A stretch of DNA of 64,000 nt from Escherichia coli (GCF_003790525.1 NZ_CP033635.1), one strand, 5' to 3'. Positions 4,381-44,612 are shown, counted from the stretch's first letter. Program-made: numbers and translations. The notes: generated by a model not told the origin, from the sequence alone.

Positions 4381-6075
4381 ATGCATCCCACAGGCCCGCA
4401 TCTCGGGCCTGATGTTCTGTTTCGAGAGTCCAAAATGAAAGTGACATTAACGTTTAACGAACAACGTCGTGCGGCGTATCGTCAGCAAGGGCTATGGGGC
4501 GATGCTTCGCTGGCCGATTACTGGCAGCAGACCGCTCGTGCGATGCCAGACAAAATTGCCGTGGTCGATAATCATGGTGCATCATACACCTATAGCGCGC
4601 TCGATCACGCCGCGAGCTGTCTGGCAAACTGGATGTTGACGAAGGGTATTGAATCAGGCGATCGCATCGCATTTCAACTGCCTGGCTGGTGTGAATTTAC
4701 CGTTATCTATCTTGCCTGCCTGAAAATCGGTGCGGTTTCCGTACCGCTGTTGCCTTCCTGGCGGGAAGCAGAACTAGTATGGGTACTCAATAAGTGTCAG
4801 GCAAAAATGTTCTTTGCACCGACGTTGTTTAAACAAACGCGTCCGGTAGATTTAATCCTGCCGCTGCAAAATCAGCTTCCACAACTACAACAAATTGTCG
4901 GCGTGGACAAACTGGCTCCCGCCACCTCTTCCCTCTCATTAAGTCAGATTCTCGCCGACAATACCCCACTGACTACGGCGATAACGACCCACGGCGATGA
5001 ATTAGCCGCTGTGCTATTTACCTCCGGAACCGAGGGTCTGCCAAAGGGCGTGATGCTAACGCATAACAATATTCTCGCCAGTGAGCGGGCTTATTGCGCG
5101 CGGCTGAATCTGACCTGGCAGGATGTCTTTATGATGCCTGCGCCACTTGGTCACGCAACGGGCTTTCTGCATGGCGTAACAGCACCATTTTTAATTGGTG
5201 CTCGCAGCGTGTTGTTAGATATTTTCACTCCTGCTGCGTGTCTCGCGCTGCTTGAGCAGCAGCGTTGCACCTGTATGCTCGGCGCAACGCCGTTTGTCTA
5301 TGATCTTTTGAATTTACTAGAGAAACAGCCCGCAGACCTTTCAGCGCTGCGTTTCTTTCTTTGTGGCGGTACCACAATCCCCAAAAAAGTGGCGCGTGAA
5401 TGCCAGCAGCGCGGCATTAAATTATTAAGTGTTTATGGTTCCACAGAAAGTTCGCCGCATGCGGTGGTGAATCTCGATGATCCTTTGTCGCGCTTTATGC
5501 ACACCGATGGTTACGCTGCCGCAGGTGTAGAGATTAAAGTGGTCGATGGCGCACGCAAGACCTTACCGCCAGGTTGCGAAGGTGAAGAAGCCTCGCGTGG
5601 CCCCAATGTGTTTATGGGGTATTTTGATGAACCTGAATTAACCGCCCATGCCCTGGATGAAGAAGGCTGGTATTACAGCGGCGATCTCTGCCGCATGGAT
5701 GAGGCTGGCTATATAAAAATAACCGGGCGCAAGAAAGATATTATTGTCCGCGGCGGCGAAAATATTAGCAGCCGTGAAGTGGAAGATATTTTATTACAGC
5801 ATCCTAAAATTCACGATGCTTGTGTGGTTGCGATGCCCGATGAACGCTTAGGTGAACGTTCATGCGCTTATGTCGTGCTGAAAGCACCGCATCATTCATT
5901 ATCGCTGGAAGATGTAGTGGCATTTTTTAGCCGTAAACGGGTCGCGAAATATAAATATCCTGAACATATCGTGGTAATCGAAAAACTACCGCGCACTGCC
6001 TCCGGTAAAATACAAAAATTTTTGTTACGTAAAGATATTCTTCAACGGCTGGAACAAACATGCGTTGAGGCATAA
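4381..6075 (+). CDS. fadK: Short-chain acyl-CoA synthetase
   Basis: 564-aa ORF with AMP-binding motifs (FTSGTEGLPKGV, ..YGSTE.., ..GYIKITGRKKD..). An internal start at MKVTL (about 4435) is also possible. Confidence 0.85.
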   Translation: MHPTGPHLGPDVLFRESKMKVTLTFNEQRRAAYRQQGLWGDASLADYWQQTARAMPDKIAVVDNHGASYTYSALDHAASCLANWMLTKGIESGDRIAFQLPGWCEFTVIYLACLKIGAVSVPLLPSWREAELVWVLNKCQAKMFFAPTLFKQTRPVDLILPLQNQLPQLQQIVGVDKLAPATSSLSLSQILADNTPLTTAITTHGDELAAVLFTSGTEGLPKGVMLTHNNILASERAYCARLNLTWQDVFMMPAPLGHATGFLHGVTAPFLIGARSVLLDIFTPAACLALLEQQRCTCMLGATPFVYDLLNLLEKQPADLSALRFFLCGGTTIPKKVARECQQRGIKLLSVYGSTESSPHAVVNLDDPLSRFMHTDGYAAAGVEIKVVDGARKTLPPGCEGEEASRGPNVFMGYFDEPELTAHALDEEGWYYSGDLCRMDEAGYIKITGRKKDIIVRGGENISSREVEDILLQHPKIHDACVVAMPDERLGERSCAYVVLKAPHHSLSLEDVVAFFSRKRVAKYKYPEHIVVIEKLPRTASGKIQKFLLRKDILQRLEQTCVEA

Positions 6076-6087
6076 GTCATAAATAAT

Positions 6088-6117
6088 AAAGCACCTTACA
6101 CGCAAGGTGCTTTATTC
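6088..6117. terminator. Bidirectional rho-independent terminator between convergent fadK and the SDR gene
   Basis: Hairpin aaagcacctt-acacgc-aaggtgcttt, flanked by an A-run upstream and T-rich sequence downstream. Confidence 0.55.
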
Positions 6118-6125
6118 AATCTCGA

Positions 6126-6869
6126 TTAACCACGTCCGACATACGGCATATTATTTGCCATAATCGTTATTTCCAGCACATTCGTGGTTACTGGCAACTG
6201 AGCCATCATCTGAATGGTCGCTGCAACATCAGCAACATTCATCATATCTTCCGCTTTAATAGCACCATCTGCCTGATAAACGCCCTTACGCATCCGATTC
6301 GATAATGTCGTTTCCGCATTGCCGATATTAATTTGCCCGCAAGCGATATTAAATTTGCGACAATCCAGGGAAATGGCCTTGGTCAACCCGGTAACAGCAT
6401 GTTTCGACGCCGTGTATGGCGCAGTATAGAGGCGCGGCGTCAGTGCAGAAATCGACGCATTGTTAATAATACGTCCTCCCATTGGCTGCTGCGCTTTCAT
6501 GATTTTAATCGCCTCTTTCGAACACAAAAATGTCGAATGAATATTGGCGTTAAACACGCGCGTCCACTCAGTAAACTCAACCTCTTCAATACTTTTTGCC
6601 GGACTATTATTGCCCGCATTTTTGAACAAGAGATCCAGTCGACCAAAAAGAGCCTTAATCTCGGCAAATAGCGCAACGACAGCGGACTCATCCGTGACAT
6701 CGGCAACCAGAGGAATAAAGCGTTCCTTGGCTAATCCTTGTGCACATTGCTGTAAGGTTTCTTCGTTACGCGCGGCAACAATAACTGTATATCCAATGTC
6801 ATAGAGTGCCTTTGCTGCTGCGTAGCCGATGCCTTTACTTCCCCCCGTCACCAGGGCAATTTTTGTCAT
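6126..6869 (-). CDS. Short-chain dehydrogenase/reductase (SDR) family oxidoreductase
   Basis: 247-aa ORF with TGGSKGIG Rossmann motif, NAG motif and catalytic YTASK. No equivalent gene is recalled at this position in K-12. Confidence 0.8.
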   Translation of the reverse strand: MTKIALVTGGSKGIGYAAAKALYDIGYTVIVAARNEETLQQCAQGLAKERFIPLVADVTDESAVVALFAEIKALFGRLDLLFKNAGNNSPAKSIEEVEFTEWTRVFNANIHSTFLCSKEAIKIMKAQQPMGGRIINNASISALTPRLYTAPYTASKHAVTGLTKAISLDCRKFNIACGQINIGNAETTLSNRMRKGVYQADGAIKAEDMMNVADVAATIQMMAQLPVTTNVLEITIMANNMPYVGRG

Positions 6870-6881
6870 AGCCAGCTCCGC

Positions 6882-7361
6882 CTATAATAAACTCATGTCG
6901 ATTTTCACGACTGTTTTTTTGATTTTTTCCACGTTATCGATTTTATAGCATGCCCGATGCACTTCTTCCGGAAAGACCACCACAAACTGTCCTGGTGTCA
7001 GCGTGATGATTCGATCATTAATACGTTCATCAGCATAAAAAATAACATCACGGTCGCCCAGGTGGCTTTCTACAACCGAGTTTTCCCCATCATCAAAATC
7101 CACACAAATCCGCTCTTCTCCGGCAATTAAAAAATGGACATCAAGATATTTACGATGAACTTCCGGTCGACATTCATGTAGTGGTTTAGTCATCGGTTCA
7201 ACCACGGTATAAAATATTGAGTCATCCTGAATAAAAACCTTCTCTCCCACAGGAAGACTATTCAGATCATGTTGTGAAAGATACTCAATGACACGAGTGA
7301 TGACAGGATGAAATGTCCGCTTTTGTTGTTCACTAAGATACGCGATATCACCATAAATCAT
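6882..7361 (-). CDS. YhcH/YjgK/YiaL (DUF386) family protein
   Basis: Track ORF 6882..7496 trimmed to the internal ATG (MIYGDIAYLSEQQKRTFHPVI...), about 159 aa. An RBS-like aaggcgga lies upstream, and the longer ORF would overlap the upstream dehydrogenase. Confidence 0.65.
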   Translation of the reverse strand: MIYGDIAYLSEQQKRTFHPVITRVIEYLSQHDLNSLPVGEKVFIQDDSIFYTVVEPMTKPLHECRPEVHRKYLDVHFLIAGEERICVDFDDGENSVVESHLGDRDVIFYADERINDRIITLTPGQFVVVFPEEVHRACYKIDNVEKIKKTVVKIDMSLL

Positions 7362-7371
7362 ATTTTCCGCC

Positions 7372-8330
7372 TTATTGAGTAACAGGGGTAATAACTGGCC
7401 GTCCGCTAAAGAAAGCCTGTAAGTTATCAAATACCAAATCCGCCATCGCATTAAACGTTTCGCTCGTACCACTGGCGATATGTGGCGTAAGGACAACGTT
7501 ATCCAGCGACATTAATTGTTCTGGCACATGTGGTTCGTTGGCATAAACGTCCAGTGCCGCACCAGCAATGATGTTATTTTGCAGAGCATCAATCAGATCG
7601 GTTTCGTTCACCACTGATCCCCGGGAAATACTGATCAAATGCCCGGTTTTCCCCAGAGCCTGCAGCACCGTTTTGTCAATAACGCCGCGCGTACTCGCGC
7701 CGCCTGGCAGCGTCAGAACGAGGAAGTCCACCGCTTGCGCCAGAGAAACCAACGAATCATGCGCCGTCCAATCAGGTTTGTTATGCGGTTTTGGGTCGAA
7801 ATAGTGAATTTCCATTTCAAATGCTGCTGCACGGCGGGCTACTGCGTTACCAATGTTCCCCAGACCGACAATTCCGCAACGTTTGCCACTCACTTTCGTC
7901 GCCATCGGGAAACGCCCCTCGTTTGGCCAACGGCCGTCACGAACATAACAATCGGCAATGTTAATACGTCGGGCAACATTGAGTAACAACGCTATACCAA
8001 TGTCTGCGACACAGTCATTAAGCACGCCAGGTGTGTTGGTGACGATAACGCCATGCTCCCTGGCTGCCACGATATCAATAGGGTCATAACCCACACCGTT
8101 GCTGGCAATAATCTTCAGATTCGGAATTTTTCTATTAGCGCCCGAGAAGCCCCCATTACCGGATTACCACTGGTCACCAGCGCCTGAATATCCGGCGCGA
8201 TTTGCGTGTAAAAAGCGCCTTCATCAGCCAGTTCCCACAGGCGATATGCGGTGAAGGTAGATTCAACTTTAGCCATTAAGCGGTCACTTAATTTGCCGAC
8301 GATCGCCACTTGAATATCTTTTAAGTTCAT
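7372..8330 (-). pseudogene. D-isomer-specific 2-hydroxyacid dehydrogenase (glyoxylate/hydroxypyruvate reductase-like), disrupted by a frameshift
   Basis: The N-terminal 71 aa (8115..8330, ..ALIEKFRI*) and the remaining 240 aa (7372..8094) are in different frames. Reading the second frame upstream restores the expected ..PNLKIIASNGVGYD.. motif, consistent with a 1-bp deletion near 8118-8127. Confidence 0.7.
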
Positions 8331-8365
8331 ACACTATTCCTTGATTGATGTTTGTCGCAGGCCAC

Positions 8366-9766
8366 TTACCACAGGCCAAGAATTTTCCACCACACCGCCC
8401 CCAGTCCGAACCAGATGGCAATGTTCAACAACATGACGATAAAGCCCAGCCGCCACCATTCTCGTTGCGAGACATAGCCAGCGCCGTAATAGATCACTGC
8501 GGGTCCGTTGCCATAATGCGAAATGCCGCTCATCAGGTTAGTGACGAACGCCAGTGACAGAGCCGCCATCATCGGCGGTGCGCCAGCAGCAACCGAGACG
8601 CTGCCAAAAGCGGCATACATCGCCACTACATGCGGCGTACTTCCGGCAAAGAAATAGTGGGAATAGCAGTAAACTATCAGCAACACCGTCAACGTTATCT
8701 CCCACGGAATGCCGGTGAACAGCGCCGAGGTTGTGACGGCAAACCATTTGAACAGGCCAAGCTGATTGAGCTTATCTGCCATACAGATCATGACTCCCAG
8801 CCAGACCAGAATGTCCCAGGCCCCCTTCTCTGACTGCACATCCTGCCAGGTGATAATCCGGGTCATCAACATTAAACAGACGCCAGAAAGCGCGACAGCC
8901 GTCGCATCCAGGCCAGTCCATTTCGATGTACTCCAGGCCAATAATGAAAGCAGGAAAATGCCAATTGTCACGCGCTCATCACGGGTTACCGGCCCCATTT
9001 TGATAAGTTCTTCCTGTGCCAACGCTTTGGCTTCTGGCGTCTTTTTGATCTCTGGCGGGTAGAGTTTGTAAATGACCAACGGCATAGTGATAAAAGCGAT
9101 AATGCCCGGCACCAGTGCGCTTAGCGTCCACATCCCCCATGAGATATCGACAAATAAAGTGCTGGCCGCCAGAGATACAATGAGTGCATTTGGCGCGCTG
9201 GCCGTCATAAACATCGAGGATGAGAGACAGTTGGAATGGAACACCGTCTGCATCAGATAAGCGCCTATTTTACGCGGCCCTTGATCCGGTTCAGATCCAA
9301 AGCTGTTAGAGACACTGCGAACAATCGGGAACAAAATCCCTCCTGCTCGCGCTGTGTTTGATGGCGTTGCGGGCGCGATAATCATATCGCTTAGCGCCAA
9401 TGTATAACCCAGACGCAACGAGCTGCCGCCAAATCCGCGAATCAGCAAATAGGCGATACGCCGCCCCAACCCCGTTTTGATGAATCCTTTCGCGTACAGG
9501 AATGCGGCGACAATAAGCCATACCGTCGTGCTGCTGAAACCTTTTAAGGCTTCGCTGGTTTTCATCATACCGGTCAGCATAATAAAACTGATGGCTATTA
9601 ACGCGATAGCGCCCACCGGCAACGGTTGCAGAATAAACGCCACCACAGTGGTGATAAATATGGCCAGAATGTGCCAGGTTAAGGGTGTTAATCCGTCGGG
9701 GACGGGGAAAAACCATATAGCGAGTGCGACAATCGCACAAATCAGGACTTTCAAATAGCAACTCAT
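8366..9766 (-). CDS. DASS-family anion permease (CitT/TtdT/YbhI-like di/tricarboxylate transporter)
   Basis: About 466-aa polytopic membrane ORF; the track starts at a TTG (9772), the first ATG is at 9766 with an aggga RBS-like sequence upstream. First gene of a four-gene minus-strand operon. Confidence 0.8.
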   Translation of the reverse strand: MSCYLKVLICAIVALAIWFFPVPDGLTPLTWHILAIFITTVVAFILQPLPVGAIALIAISFIMLTGMMKTSEALKGFSSTTVWLIVAAFLYAKGFIKTGLGRRIAYLLIRGFGGSSLRLGYTLALSDMIIAPATPSNTARAGGILFPIVRSVSNSFGSEPDQGPRKIGAYLMQTVFHSNCLSSSMFMTASAPNALIVSLAASTLFVDISWGMWTLSALVPGIIAFITMPLVIYKLYPPEIKKTPEAKALAQEELIKMGPVTRDERVTIGIFLLSLLAWSTSKWTGLDATAVALSGVCLMLMTRIITWQDVQSEKGAWDILVWLGVMICMADKLNQLGLFKWFAVTTSALFTGIPWEITLTVLLIVYCYSHYFFAGSTPHVVAMYAAFGSVSVAAGAPPMMAALSLAFVTNLMSGISHYGNGPAVIYYGAGYVSQREWWRLGFIVMLLNIAIWFGLGAVWWKILGLW

Positions 9767-10023
9767 ATGCAATCCCTGTAGCTGTTTCCCACCGCTCGCG
9801 GAGGGAATTTATCCTGTTTTCTGTACAGCCAGACAAATCAGAAAATCGGTTTTAGTTCGAATAAATTCTCTGAATTACATAATCTGCGCTTATGTCTGAA
9901 TAACGGTGCGGTAATTTTTCATGGCCATATCCCTTTTTATGCTGTGGTTGAAGATAGTATAAAAACGGGACTCATCAGTGACTTCGTGCAATCCAACGAA
10001 CTCTGGACGAAAAAATTACGCAT

Positions 10024-10236
10024 ATGCTTAAGGAAATTGACGTGTGGTCACATTCGGCTTTGAGAAAAAACGGTATCGAGAATTATTCTGTGGAGAGGAT
10101 CGCAAACAAATTAAAATCAGAAAGAACAGCAGCCAATTATTCAGATGATGTCCGGAAACTTTTTATATTGCATGAGCGCGTTTGCCCAAAGCAGGTTGTT
10201 AAAAGGTGGGGATATAGAAATGGACCCGGCGACTGA
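10024..10236 (+). CDS. Hypothetical small protein (70 aa), possibly a gene remnant
   Basis: ATG-initiated ORF (MLKEIDVWSHSALRKNGIENYSVERIANK...) divergent from the transporter operon and followed by a hairpin plus T-run. No clear RBS and no family recognised. Confidence 0.2.
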   Translation: MLKEIDVWSHSALRKNGIENYSVERIANKLKSERTAANYSDDVRKLFILHERVCPKQVVKRWGYRNGPGD

Positions 10237-10254: not shown

Positions 10255-12633
10255 TTACTTGTTAAGTTCAGCCAGACTTAACCAGGTTTGCACCACGGTG
10301 TCCGGGTTAAGAGACAGGCTATCGATCCCCTCTTCCATCAACCATGCAGCAAAGTCTTCGTGGTCGGATGGACCCTGACCGCAAATCCCGACATATTTGC
10401 CCTGTTTCTTCGCGGCACGAATCGCCATCGACAGCAGTGCTTTCACCGCATCGTTGCGCTCATCGAACAGTTCAGATACCACGCCGGAGTCACGATCCAG
10501 ACCGAGCGCCAGCTGCGTCATGTCGTTTGAGCCAATTGAGAAGCCGTCGAAATATTCGAGGAACTGCTCGGCCAGCAAGGCGTTGGACGGGATTTCACAC
10601 ATCATGATGATTTTCAGCCCGTTCTCACCACGTTTCAGCCCCTGACGCGCCAGTTCCTCAACCACCGCTTTCGCCTGATCTACGGTACGCACGAACGGGA
10701 TCATGATCTCAACGTTGGTCAGCCCCATGTCGTTGCGCACACGTTTCACTGCTTCACACTCCAGCGCGAAGCAGTCGCGGAAGCTGTCGGAAACATAGCG
10801 GCCCGCGCCACGGAAGCCGAGCATCGGGTTCTCTTCATCTGGCTCGTAACGCTCACCACCGACCAGGTTGGCATATTCGTTCGATTTAAAATCAGAGAGA
10901 CGGACAATGACGCGCTTCGGATAAAACGCGGCACCCAGCGTCGCGATCCCTTCAGTCAGACGACCAACGTAAAATTCACGCGGAGAATCAAAACCTTTCA
11001 TCATCTCGCGGATTTCGTTTTGCAACTGCGGTTCTTGATCGTCAAACTCAAGCAGCGCGCGTGGGTGGACGCCAATCATACGGTTGATGATAAATTCCAG
11101 ACGCGCAAGGCCCACGCCTTCGTTCGGCAGGCAGGCGAAGTCGAAAGCACGATCCGGGTTACCGACGTTCATCATCACCTTCAACGGCAGGTCCGGCATC
11201 GTTTCTACGCTGGAGCTTTTCACGCTAAATTCCAGCAACTCCGCATAGACATAACCGGTATCACCTTCGGCACAAGAAACAGTGACGTTCTCACCGTCTT
11301 TCATCCGTTCTGTTGCATCACCACAGCCCACTACCGCCGGAATGCCGAGTTCACGAGCGATGATCGCCGCGTGACAGGTACGACCGCCACGGTTGGTGAC
11401 GATGGCAGATGCTTTCTTCATGATCGGTTCCCAGTCCGGGTCGGTCATGTCAGTAACCAGCACGTCACCAGGTTCGATGCGGTTCATTTCGCTGATGTCA
11501 TGGATGACTTTCACCGGACCCGCGCCGATGCGATGACCGATAGCACGGCCTTCGGCGATAATCTTACCCTGTGAATGCAGCGTATAACGCTCCATGACCT
11601 GACCGCGTGAGCGCACGGTTTCCGGACGCGCCTGCACAATGAACAGTTTGCCGGTGTGGCCATCTTTCGCCCACTCAATATCCATCGGGCGACCGTAGTG
11701 TTTCTCAATTTGTACGGCCTGTTTTGCCAGTTCCTGCACTTCTTCGTTGGTCAGCGAGAAGATGTCACGCTGTTCCTGCGGTACGTCTTCGATTTTAACC
11801 TGCTTGCCGTGCTCCTGGGTCGGCGCGTAAACCATGCGGATTTTTTTCGACCCCATGGTGCGGCGCACGATAGCCGGGCGATTCGCCGCCAGTGTCGGTT
11901 TGTGCACGTAAAACTCATCCGGGTTAACCGCACCCTGCACGACCATTTCACCAAGGCCCCATGCGGAAGTGATAAACACCACCTGGTCAAAGCCGGATTC
12001 GGTATCAATGGAGAACATCACGCCAGAAGATGCGAGGTCGGAGCGCACCATCCGCTGAACACCGGCGGAGAGCGCCACGCCACGGTGATCGTAACCCTGG
12101 TGCACACGATAAGAGATGGCGCGATCGTTAAACAGAGAAGCAAATACATGTTTCACTGCCACGAGAACGGCGTCAAAACCCTGAACGTTGAGGAAGGTTT
12201 CCTGCTGACCGGCAAAAGAAGCGTCCGGCATATCTTCTGCAGTAGCGGAGGAACGCACCGCAAACGAGGCGTTTTCGTCATCGGCGGAAAGCTGTGCATA
12301 GGCTTCGCGGATGGCGTTTTCCAGCTCAGGCTGGAAGGGAGTGTCGATAATCCACTGGCGGATTTGCGCGCCCGCTTTCGCAAGCTGGGTAACATCGTCA
12401 ATATCCGTTTTATCCAGCAGTTCATAAATGCGCTGGTTTACGCCGCTTTGGTCCAGAAACTGGTTAAACGCGTCGGCGGTTGTGGCGAAACCATTCGGAA
12501 CGGAAACACCCATTCCGGAAAGGTTAGTAATCATTTCACCCAGGGAGGCATTTTTGCCCCCAACCCTGTCTACATCATTCATGCCGAGTTGGTTATACCA
12601 AAGCACCAGCGGTGACGAGCCATTGTTGGACAT
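10255..12633 (-). CDS. ppsA: Phosphoenolpyruvate synthase
   Basis: 792-aa ORF ([34 protein letters not shown]...) with PEP-utilising enzyme domains; length matches E. coli PpsA. Confidence 0.97.
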
Positions 12634-43769: not shown

Positions 43770-44612
43770 TTACTGATTAAATTCAGTCAATTTCTTACGA
43801 TAGCTCTTAGGCGTAAAGGACGTTAATTTCTTAAACGTTTTAATAAACAAACTCGGGCTACTATAACCGGCCTCAAACGCAACATCCGTCACTGAATAGT
43901 TGGTCATTTCCAGTTGTTTTTTGGCAAAATTAATACGGATTTCATTAATAATCTGCATTGGCGTTTTGCCATAATATCGTTGAGTCGCTCGCGTCAAATA
44001 TTCCTGTGATTTGGCTGACAACGTCACCATATTCTCCAGTGCCGATTCACTAAACTGCTCTTTATCATGCATCTTTTCTACCGTACTTTTCAGCCACTGC
44101 GGTACATCATCAATCACCTGTTCTTCGCGGTAATGACGTAAACGGTTAATGACATAAAAAGTAACCATCTCAACAAACTCTTCCAGCCCTGTTTCGCGGA
44201 AATTCAATGAAGAAATCACTGTTTCCACATAGGTGAGAAAAGCGTTATTGGTCCGGTATACCTGCGAAGCAACAAAGCAATAAGGCAACAACGGCAGGTA
44301 ATGCTGCTCAAAAAAGCGTTTACTGATCCCAACGTTCAATATGCGCGTGGCACCAAACTCATAAAAACTTTGATGGTGCGAACCTAACGGAATAAAAACA
44401 AAATCGCCCCGTTCCAGTAACACGCGCTTACCGTTAATCTCCTGGAAATAACGCCCGGTTAATACCAGAGTAAATTCATAATAGTCGTGCTGATGCAGTC
44501 CGCTGATACTCTCAGTTTTGTTGTAGATAAACACATGGAAGTTTTTGCCATTAAACAACTGCTGTTCTCGGGCAGTGGCAATTTCCGGCGCGTTAATCAT
44601 TGGCTGCATCAT
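43770..44612 (-). CDS. chbR: AraC-family chb operon regulator
   Basis: 280-aa ORF with a C-terminal AraC HTH. Confidence 0.93.

Follow-up and report, generated by a model that had tools for sequence, protein, structure and literature searches.

A 64,000-nucleotide stretch of Escherichia coli DNA (GCF_003790525.1, NZ_CP033635.1; hereafter the window) carries between fadK and ppsA a four-gene cassette that is a real, conserved, and uncharacterized variant of a sugar-acid catabolic module, assembled from known enzyme families. Its minus-strand genes encode, from first to last, a DASS anion permease, a D-2-hydroxyacid dehydrogenase (2-HADH), a DUF386 metalloprotein, and a classical SDR oxidoreductase (Table 1). 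The chances are about even that these genes constitute a self-contained operon for the catabolism of an acidic derivative of a sugar, with transcription running from the AT-rich region beside ppsA towards fadK. The substrate would most likely be an aldonate, keto-aldonate, or aldarate of the C4-C6 range, such as an ascorbate- or plant-derived one. The original prediction, made from this DNA alone, had described a four-gene minus-strand operon at this site; the listing of open reading frames (ORFs) and the RefSeq annotation of the matching reference confirmed the four ORFs, their coordinates, and their spacing, and the four family assignments also held. Its reading of the genes as an uptake-plus-oxidation module for a hydroxy-dicarboxylate or a sugar acid names the right general class. 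Its view that no substrate could be assigned was too pessimistic, as the SDR and the 2-HADH are homologous to an L-threonate 3-dehydrogenase (Ltn3D) and a 2-keto-gluconate/2-keto-gulonate reductase (2KGR) characterized in one report (PMC12994016).

The cassette is conserved as a unit across five genera, at five or more unrelated loci. Outside Escherichia, the same four genes in the same order occur in Citrobacter, Salmonella, Mangrovibacter (sp. MFB070), and Celerinatantimonas (sp.), the last a non-enterobacterial gammaproteobacterium. In Citrobacter youngae and C. werkmanii they lie between GNAT acetyltransferase and methyltransferase genes. In Salmonella enterica they lie downstream of tolB-pal-cpoB, adjoining bigA and a transposase fragment that is found beside this copy only. 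Searches of the available literature for the RefSeq protein accessions, the locus-tag prefix ECSMS35_14, or the gene combination returned no paper. The Ltn3D report contains no mention of Escherichia genes, DUF386, or DASS (PMC12994016).

The top solved relatives of the SDR are 4DYV, 4DRY, and 9X6I, the last being PlLtn3D of Paracoccus litorisediminis, with which it shares 50.2% identity. In its description (Watanabe et al., J Biol Chem 2026; PDB 9X6I/9XAX; PMC12994016), PlLtn3D is an NADP-preferring L-threonate 3-dehydrogenase that also oxidizes D-gluconate, D-xylonate, L-arabinonate, D-galactonate, and D-fuconate; it is inactive on L-tartrate, and tartronate is a competitive inhibitor (55 uM). 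There, Arg143, Asn181, Glu204, and Met238 are assigned to recognition of the substrate carboxylate and 2-OH, and Arg33 to NADP. The cassette SDR keeps S139, S141, R146, Y152, K156, N184, E207, M241, and R34, equivalent to PlLtn3D Ser136, Ser138, Arg143, Tyr149, Lys153, Asn181, Glu204, Met238, and Arg33. Thus every residue whose replacement by alanine abolished or severely impaired activity in PlLtn3D is conserved, together with the key NADP arginine. Two other PlLtn3D residues are replaced in the cassette SDR, Met186 by Leu and Arg34 by Asn; the latter makes the cofactor pair Arg-Asn (the 'Arg-X' type of PMC12994016), whereas PlLtn3D has Arg-Arg. The SDR is accordingly placed, by homology, in the Ltn3D (sugar-acid 3-dehydrogenase) subfamily. 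Basic residues in its substrate lid were considered as a di-acid signal and found uninformative, similar ones being visible by eye in 4DYV and 4DRY. Stand-alone orthologs of the SDR, lacking the other three genes, occur in C. koseri (82% identity) and in Klebsiella (75%; labelled K. oxytoca by the cluster source). The C. koseri gene lies a few kb from a galactarate dehydratase gene (garD) and a CdaR-type sugar-diacid regulator.

The 2-HADH points in the same general direction. PF00389 and PF02826 are found on its orthologs, many solved 2-HADHs match it strongly, and it carries GLGNIG at position 156 and an Arg-Glu-His triad formed by the Arg of SISRGS, the Glu of ANEP, and the His of TPHIAS. 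Its best solved relative is K. vulgare 4LSW (E 4e-80, 47% identical), and it is 41% identical to Pl2KGR of Paracoccus, a 2-keto-D-gluconate/2-keto-L-gulonate reductase that is NADPH-specific (PMC12994016). The cofactor-discriminating pair is Asp-Pro, which resembles the Asp-Ile of Kv2KGR and differs from the Ser-Arg of Pl2KGR, and the enzyme is predicted to be of the NADH type. It falls under every NCBIfam equivalog cut-off; orthology with GhrB (TkrA) was ruled out by a score of 173.8 bits against a cut-off of 492 for NF011938. The protein groups with the 2-keto-aldonate reductases (Pl2KGR and the K. vulgare enzyme 4LSW) and lies in one putative operon with the Ltn3D-like SDR.

This pairing has a direct counterpart. 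The Paracoccus Ltn3D and 2KGR genes (GL300_RS07945/07940) are adjacent, 5 bp apart, and the association of an SDR of this subfamily with a 2-HADH of this subgroup, both belonging to sugar-acid metabolism, therefore recurs across bacterial classes. The two systems are far from identical. The Paracoccus pair sits in a 'funnel' cluster of approximately 30 genes that includes dehydratases, GntR regulators, OtnI, Ltn2D, and TctABC, with neither a DUF386 nor a DASS gene. Furthermore, its two genes are directly adjacent, whereas the cassette places the DUF386 gene between 2-HADH and SDR; the cofactor pairs of both enzymes differ, as described above; and the cassette transporter, unlike the Paracoccus system, predicts a dianion.

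The DUF386 protein scores 129.8 bits against TIGR00022 (cut-off 45.5) and matches HI0227 at E 5.5e-16. A metal-binding tetrad, E67/H69/D74/H135 (E-x-H-x4-D...H), is invariant across the cassette clade; the corresponding Zn/Cu-binding motif has been described for YjgK (PMC12517248). A word-indexed homolog search gave 4 matches only, and an exhaustive protein search was used instead. It delineated a narrow clade, with just two 50%-identity clusters below 1e-30. Among approximately 100,000 species representatives, close orthologs (at least 72% identity) are limited to two Escherichia species and C. youngae. The nearest outgroup relatives, 35-40% identical, occur in three contexts, all concerned with 2-keto sugar acids: IclR-DUF386-KduI-KduD-KdgT, KDG kinase-KDPG aldolase-DUF386, and TRAP transporter-DUF386-Gfo/Idh/MocA-Ldh_2 (YiaK-like). 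In E. coli, the yiaK-S operon serves 2,3-diketo-L-gulonate utilization, and YiaL is its DUF386 member. Both yiaK-S and the KduI/KduD/KdgT clusters, like the cassette, link a DUF386 protein to keto-sugar-acid oxidoreductases and a dedicated anion transporter. Their reductases are Ldh_2 or KduD and their transporters TRAP or KdgT, whereas the cassette combines a 2-HADH and an Ltn3D-like SDR with an exchanger-type DASS permease and, unlike them, has no kinase, aldolase, or epimerase gene.

A functional analogy is provided by NanQ (YhcH), the N-acetylneuraminate anomerase of the nan operon, which supplies NanA with open-chain N-acetylneuraminate (PMC8141875). NanQ shares the DUF386 fold family and the metal-site motif with the cassette protein, and a ring-opening or anomerase helper function, that is, supply of an open-chain 2-keto acid, is proposed for the latter by analogy. 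Orthology with NanQ was ruled out: the equivalog NF040884 gives 101.2 bits against a cut-off of 160, and no nan genes lie near the cassette at any locus examined. None of the other enterobacterial DUF386 proteins found (presumed NanQ) exceeds 42% identity to the cassette protein, whose partner is a reductase rather than the aldolase served by NanQ, and the cassette is not a sialic-acid cluster.

The permease belongs to the DASS family (TIGR00785, 447.6 bits against a cut-off of 198.6, residues 23-462), and its closest solved relatives are the plastid transporter DiT1 (E 1e-129, 44.6% identical), DiT2, and the exchanger LaINDY. DASS exchangers keep an arginine at the Na1 site (Arg159 of LaINDY, salt-bridged to an acidic residue), a histidine at Na2 (His392), and a further histidine (His401), all absent from cotransporters (PMC7553777). 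The permease has the equivalents of these three residues in PSNTARAGG and SHYFFAGSTPH, with Asp at the position of Glu146, and the Citrobacter, Salmonella, Mangrovibacter, and Celerinatantimonas orthologs likewise retain the exchanger residues. Because the residues that replace two Na+ ions are conserved in every cassette ortholog, the protein is assigned as a distinct exchanger-type DASS (DASS-E) transporter rather than a Na+ symporter. It falls in the same clade as LaINDY, DiT1/DiT2, CitT, TtdT, and YbhI, and has the cation-surrogate residues of that clade, Arg and His...His. None of the K-12 DASS-E paralogs is its ortholog (YbhI 39%, CitT 38%, and TtdT 35% identity). Moreover, its linked genes encode sugar-acid-type oxidoreductases and not citrate lyase or tartrate dehydratase.

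Taken as a pathway, these components suggest a plausible sequence of events. Family membership, conserved residues, and gene linkage are observed, whereas the succession of steps, the task given to DUF386, and the identity of the substrate are our proposal. The exchanger-type permease would import the substrate anion against an internal anion. The DUF386 metalloprotein would then act on the cyclic hemiketal of a 2-keto sugar acid, opening or anomerizing it much as NanQ treats sialic acid, and the NADH-type 2-HADH would reduce the acid at its exposed 2-keto group, yielding a 2(R)-hydroxy acid, in the manner of 2-keto-gulonate/2-keto-gluconate reductases. Next, the NADP-type SDR would oxidize the 3-hydroxyl of the 2(R),3(S)-hydroxy acid to a 3-oxo (beta-keto) acid, as L-threonate 3-dehydrogenase does. 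The 3-oxo acid could finally enter central metabolism through host phosphorylation and/or decarboxylation. OtnK and OtnC (ygbK and ygbL in K-12) are known downstream enzymes for Ltn3D products.

Several observations weigh against this scheme. Firstly, the DASS-E signature predicts a divalent anion, and the known relatives carry di- or tricarboxylates, whereas the substrates of Ltn3D and 2KGR are mono-anionic aldonates. The prediction follows from the charge-compensation model of LaINDY, in which divalent anions are the expected substrates of exchangers (PMC7553777). Secondly, E. coli SMS-3-5, the closest reference to the window, has no ygbIJKLMN (otnK/otnC) at mutS-rpoS, so that genes of the published pathway for Ltn3D products are not at their usual place there. 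Routing through OtnK/OtnC is thereby weakened. Of 5,426 E. coli genomes, 4,578 have otnK-otnC, and at least one genome with the cassette has the pair as well. Thirdly, substrate specificity cannot be deduced from identities of 41-50%, PlLtn3D is itself promiscuous, and SDRs related to it stand alone in C. koseri and Klebsiella. To our knowledge, no member of the DUF386 family has been shown to act on keto-aldonates. At the mutS-rpoS site of SMS-3-5 (NC_010498.1 2936816-2939637), hydroxyarylic-acid decarboxylase BCD genes and a MarR regulator replace the L-threonate/3-oxo-tetronate genes ygbIJKLMN of K-12.

The catabolic reading must further be weighed against the state of the operon in the source isolate. 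The first 61.2 kb of the window differ from SMS-3-5 (NC_010498.1) at just three positions, and all three of these private differences alter a protein sequence. At position 6621, T for A produces N83K in the NNAG motif of the SDR; the reference protein has all three motifs (TGxxxGxG, NNAG, and YxxxK), and the window copy reads KNAG. At approximately 8124, a 1-nt deletion in an A-run breaks the 2-HADH frame after Phe69 (...IEKF, then RI-stop), giving a stop after 71 amino acids. The third and last, C for T at position 43883, produces I244V in ChbR. The presence of two of three differences within 3.6 kb of 61 kb has a probability of approximately 0.01 by chance. It is therefore possible, with the odds somewhat against it, that the operon is here a decaying remnant, inactivated by the frameshift and N83K and without function in that isolate. 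With private and presumably damaging changes in two of its genes, it may be inactive there.

How far this extends can be read from other carriers. When 61-nt probes around both variants were matched against complete genomes, the frameshift probe found 102, all (102/102) with the reference state, while 12 of the 114 cassette carriers gave no match; the N83K probe found the reference state in 114/114. No complete genome contained an identical copy of either variant, which is consistent with a private origin. On the other hand, the deletion lies within a homopolymer run and may be an assembly error. The reading frame, interrupted in the window, is intact in the reference, and the 319-aa gene is intact in all annotated carriers. 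The frameshift noticed in the original prediction is thus real in this DNA and private to it: since SMS-3-5 and all 102 probe-matched genomes are without the deletion, it is best described as a strain-private mutation or a homopolymer assembly error, and it was ruled out as a feature of the operon. With annotated carriers intact and the proteins conserved across genera, selection on the cassette in general is implied, which argues against the decay reading. In E. coli CS5L (NZ_CP158311.1), an IS1 transposase within the cassette splits the SDR annotation in two, another sign of occasional operon decay.

The window is not SMS-3-5 itself, as shown by the three point differences and by a different island after ynjA (60680-61228). 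From 61233 to 64000 the sequence departs from SMS-3-5, in which ynjB follows, and instead contains a tyrosine integrase (ORF 61386-62603), then genes for a GT4 glycosyltransferase and a CptA-like phosphoethanolamine-transferase, an arrangement shared by 29 other complete E. coli genomes. As the last 2.8 kb differ, the source of the window is a close relative of SMS-3-5.

Returning to function, the dianion suggested by the exchanger and the missing OtnK/OtnC segment of SMS-3-5 keep alive a di-acid reading and, more weakly, a redox-sink reading. An unlikely alternative to sugar-acid catabolism is the conversion of a hydroxy-dicarboxylate (tartrate isomers or other aldarates) to D-glycerate. The exchanger would import the di-acid against succinate, and oxidation at its 3-hydroxyl by the SDR would yield a beta-keto di-acid, for example oxaloglycolate. 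Decarboxylation or tautomerization of this product, promoted by the DUF386 protein, would give hydroxypyruvate, which the 2-HADH would reduce to D-glycerate for host glycerate kinase. The DASS-E signature and the 35-39% identity to TtdT, CitT, and YbhI agree with such a route, as do the place of the 2-HADH in the glyoxylate/hydroxypyruvate-reductase group and the C. koseri SDR ortholog near garD and the CdaR-type regulator; being self-sufficient, the pathway would also be consistent with the absence of otnK/otnC from SMS-3-5. A Pseudomonas oxaloglycolate reductase (decarboxylating), EC 1.1.1.92, is an orphan activity said also to reduce hydroxypyruvate. In favor of the route, the Ltn3D active site tightly binds tartronate, itself a di-acid, but PlLtn3D does not oxidize L-tartrate (PMC12994016). 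Also against it, the nearest DUF386 contexts are mono-acid keto sugar pathways, and E. coli already has the TtdAB/TtdT and Gar/Gud routes. We know of no DUF386 protein acting as a decarboxylase or tautomerase.

A more ambitious proposal, which we consider quite unlikely, is that the four genes specify an entire pathway, not described before, that acts on a dianionic sugar acid such as an aldarate, a tartrate isomer, or a dicarboxylate formed from ascorbate. In it, the SDR and the 2KGR-like reductase would be retuned to di-acids and the DUF386 protein would have a new catalytic role in ring opening, tautomerization, or decarboxylation of a keto di-acid. If true, this proposal could assign proteins to orphan activities, oxaloglycolate reductase (decarboxylating) and tartrate dehydrogenase being examples, and the pathway would represent a niche trait of minority lineages of Escherichia, Salmonella, and Citrobacter.

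Very unlikely is an electron sink, in which a 2-oxo-dicarboxylate would be imported, reduced by the NADH-type 2-HADH, and exported as the hydroxy acid through the same exchanger, the benefit being NAD+ regeneration during anaerobic gut growth rather than carbon gain: CitT, TtdT, and LaINDY do exchange dicarboxylates, typically against succinate (PMC7553777; K-12 annotations), the Asp-type cofactor pair would accept NADH, and the cassette has no linked regulator, kinase, or aldolase, but the scheme leaves the constant NADP-type Ltn3D-like SDR and the DUF386 protein unexplained, and the homology to Ltn3D and 2KGR indicates sugar acids rather than TCA-type oxo-acids.

Catabolism of a sugar acid, as the preferred reading, does not overturn current understanding, all parts being drawn from familiar enzyme families. 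The cassette represents an unstudied, strain-variable catabolic trait in approximately 2% of sequenced E. coli and in some Salmonella and Citrobacter. If it gives access to an ascorbate- or plant-derived sugar acid, it would be a niche determinant in the gut or the environment. It also offers a compact four-gene test bed for DUF386 chemistry outside sialic-acid metabolism, and it probes both the reach of Ltn3D/2KGR chemistry and whether exchanger-type DASS transporters carry sugar acids.

The sequence is compatible with coordinated expression of the four genes. They are co-directional and lie 35, 10, and 12 bp apart, and a Shine-Dalgarno-like sequence stands before every one of them. A terminator scan returned only weak intragenic sites, no more than in shuffled sequence, and no convincing internal terminator. 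A hairpin is present only after the last gene, between the stop codons of fadK and the SDR gene, and is likely a bidirectional terminator that ends the operon; it was read directly from the sequence and was not flagged by a simple terminator scan. Together, these features make a single operon plausible, in agreement with the original prediction.

Regulation may come from elsewhere in the genome. As that prediction had stated, there is no cognate regulator: no regulator gene lies inside the cassette or consistently adjacent to it at the five kinds of locus examined. The upstream region accompanies the cassette, with 96% identity between the window and E. whittamii and with parts conserved in Citrobacter. 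Alignment with Citrobacter revealed a conserved inverted repeat, TTCGT-N8-ACGAA, at 9983-10000, a conserved -10-like TATACT next to it at 9956-9961 (minus strand), and a conserved block, GCTGTACAGAAAACAGGAT, immediately before the permease start codon. The TATACT motif and the repeat are a candidate promoter and operator for an unlinked regulator, with a predicted transcription start near 9949 (minus strand), and control by a host-encoded factor is a reasonable guess. The promoter scan found no consensus sigma-70 promoter on the minus (operon) strand, and its counts were no better than in shuffles. An RNA element in the long upstream region was also considered and dropped, as Rfam gave no match at E up to 1.

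The cassette is present in 114 of 5,426 complete E. coli genomes (approximately 2%), always chromosomal and single-copy. Its alleles form two groups, one of 80 genomes with at least 99% identity and one of 34 with approximately 96.5%. Carriers include the extraintestinal pathogens O7:K1 CE10 and IAI39 as well as environmental or animal isolates, SMS-3-5 among them. In E. whittamii and Escherichia sp. MOD1-EC7003 the cassette occupies the same fadK-ppsA site, where its DNA is 96% and 91-95% identical to the window, respectively; the flanking fadK and ppsA genes of the two species are 91-94% and 94-96% identical. Given the shared site in two other Escherichia species and a divergence of genus scale, the distribution looks less like a recent insertion than like an old genus-level presence/absence polymorphism, the cassette having been lost from the majority of E. 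coli lineages, perhaps with a degree of recombination. Recent horizontal acquisition by E. coli was disfavored since cassette divergence (91-96%) resembles that of the flanking core genes (91-96%). A mobile-element origin, as an integrative island or transposon, was ruled out as well: ORFs, RefSeq annotation, and a repeat search revealed no integrase or transposase, tRNA gene, or flanking direct or inverted repeats in or around 6040-10224.

Comparison with K-12 defines the boundaries of the locus. There, as the original prediction stated, fadK and ppsA are adjacent and convergent, separated by 56 bp, and the cluster is absent; its description of the genes as inserted into the K-12 order fits this absence, but not the older history indicated by the two other Escherichia species. 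K-12 homology ends at approximately 6039, within the last ~12 codons of fadK, and restarts at approximately 10225, at the ppsA terminator hairpin. The variable segment thereby stands in place of approximately 66 bp of K-12 sequence, ~36 bp of which form the end of fadK. The claim that GC content is near the host average holds for the operon overall (0.487, against 0.494 for the window) and fails for the DUF386 gene and the upstream region, where it is clearly lower, at 0.40.

Table 1. Coordinates of the cassette and neighboring features in the window.
Feature	Position	Strand	Basis
DASS anion permease (gene 1), 466 aa	8366-9766	minus	SMS-3-5 RefSeq annotation, positions transferred to the window (also for genes 2-4)
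D-2-hydroxyacid dehydrogenase (gene 2), 319 aa in reference, 2-keto-aldonate-reductase-like	7372-8330	minus	SMS-3-5 RefSeq annotation
YhcH/YjgK/YiaL (DUF386) metalloprotein (gene 3), 159 aa	6882-7361	minus	SMS-3-5 RefSeq annotation
Classical SDR, predicted Ltn3D subfamily (gene 4), 247 aa	6126-6869	minus	SMS-3-5 RefSeq annotation
Variable segment, 4.18 kb	~6040-10224		Alignment of the window to the K-12 empty site
Hairpin AAAGCACCTT-N6-AAGGTGCTTT, A/T runs on both sides	6088-6113		Read directly from sequence
AT-rich upstream region, 458 bp, travels with cassette	9767-10224	minus	Alignment with Citrobacter upstream regions
fadK	4435-6075	plus	ORF listing
ppsA	10255-12633	minus	ORF listing

As the left junction falls within fadK, genomes with and without the cassette also differ in the FadK tail. 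The FadK C-terminus of cassette carriers (...LRKDILQRLEQTCVEA, window 6040-6075) differs from that of K-12, whose 3'-end DNA diverges over the last ~36 bp. Within the upstream region, a 70-aa plus-strand ORF at 10024-10236 overlaps the ppsA terminator hairpin and has no RefSeq annotation; it is probably spurious.

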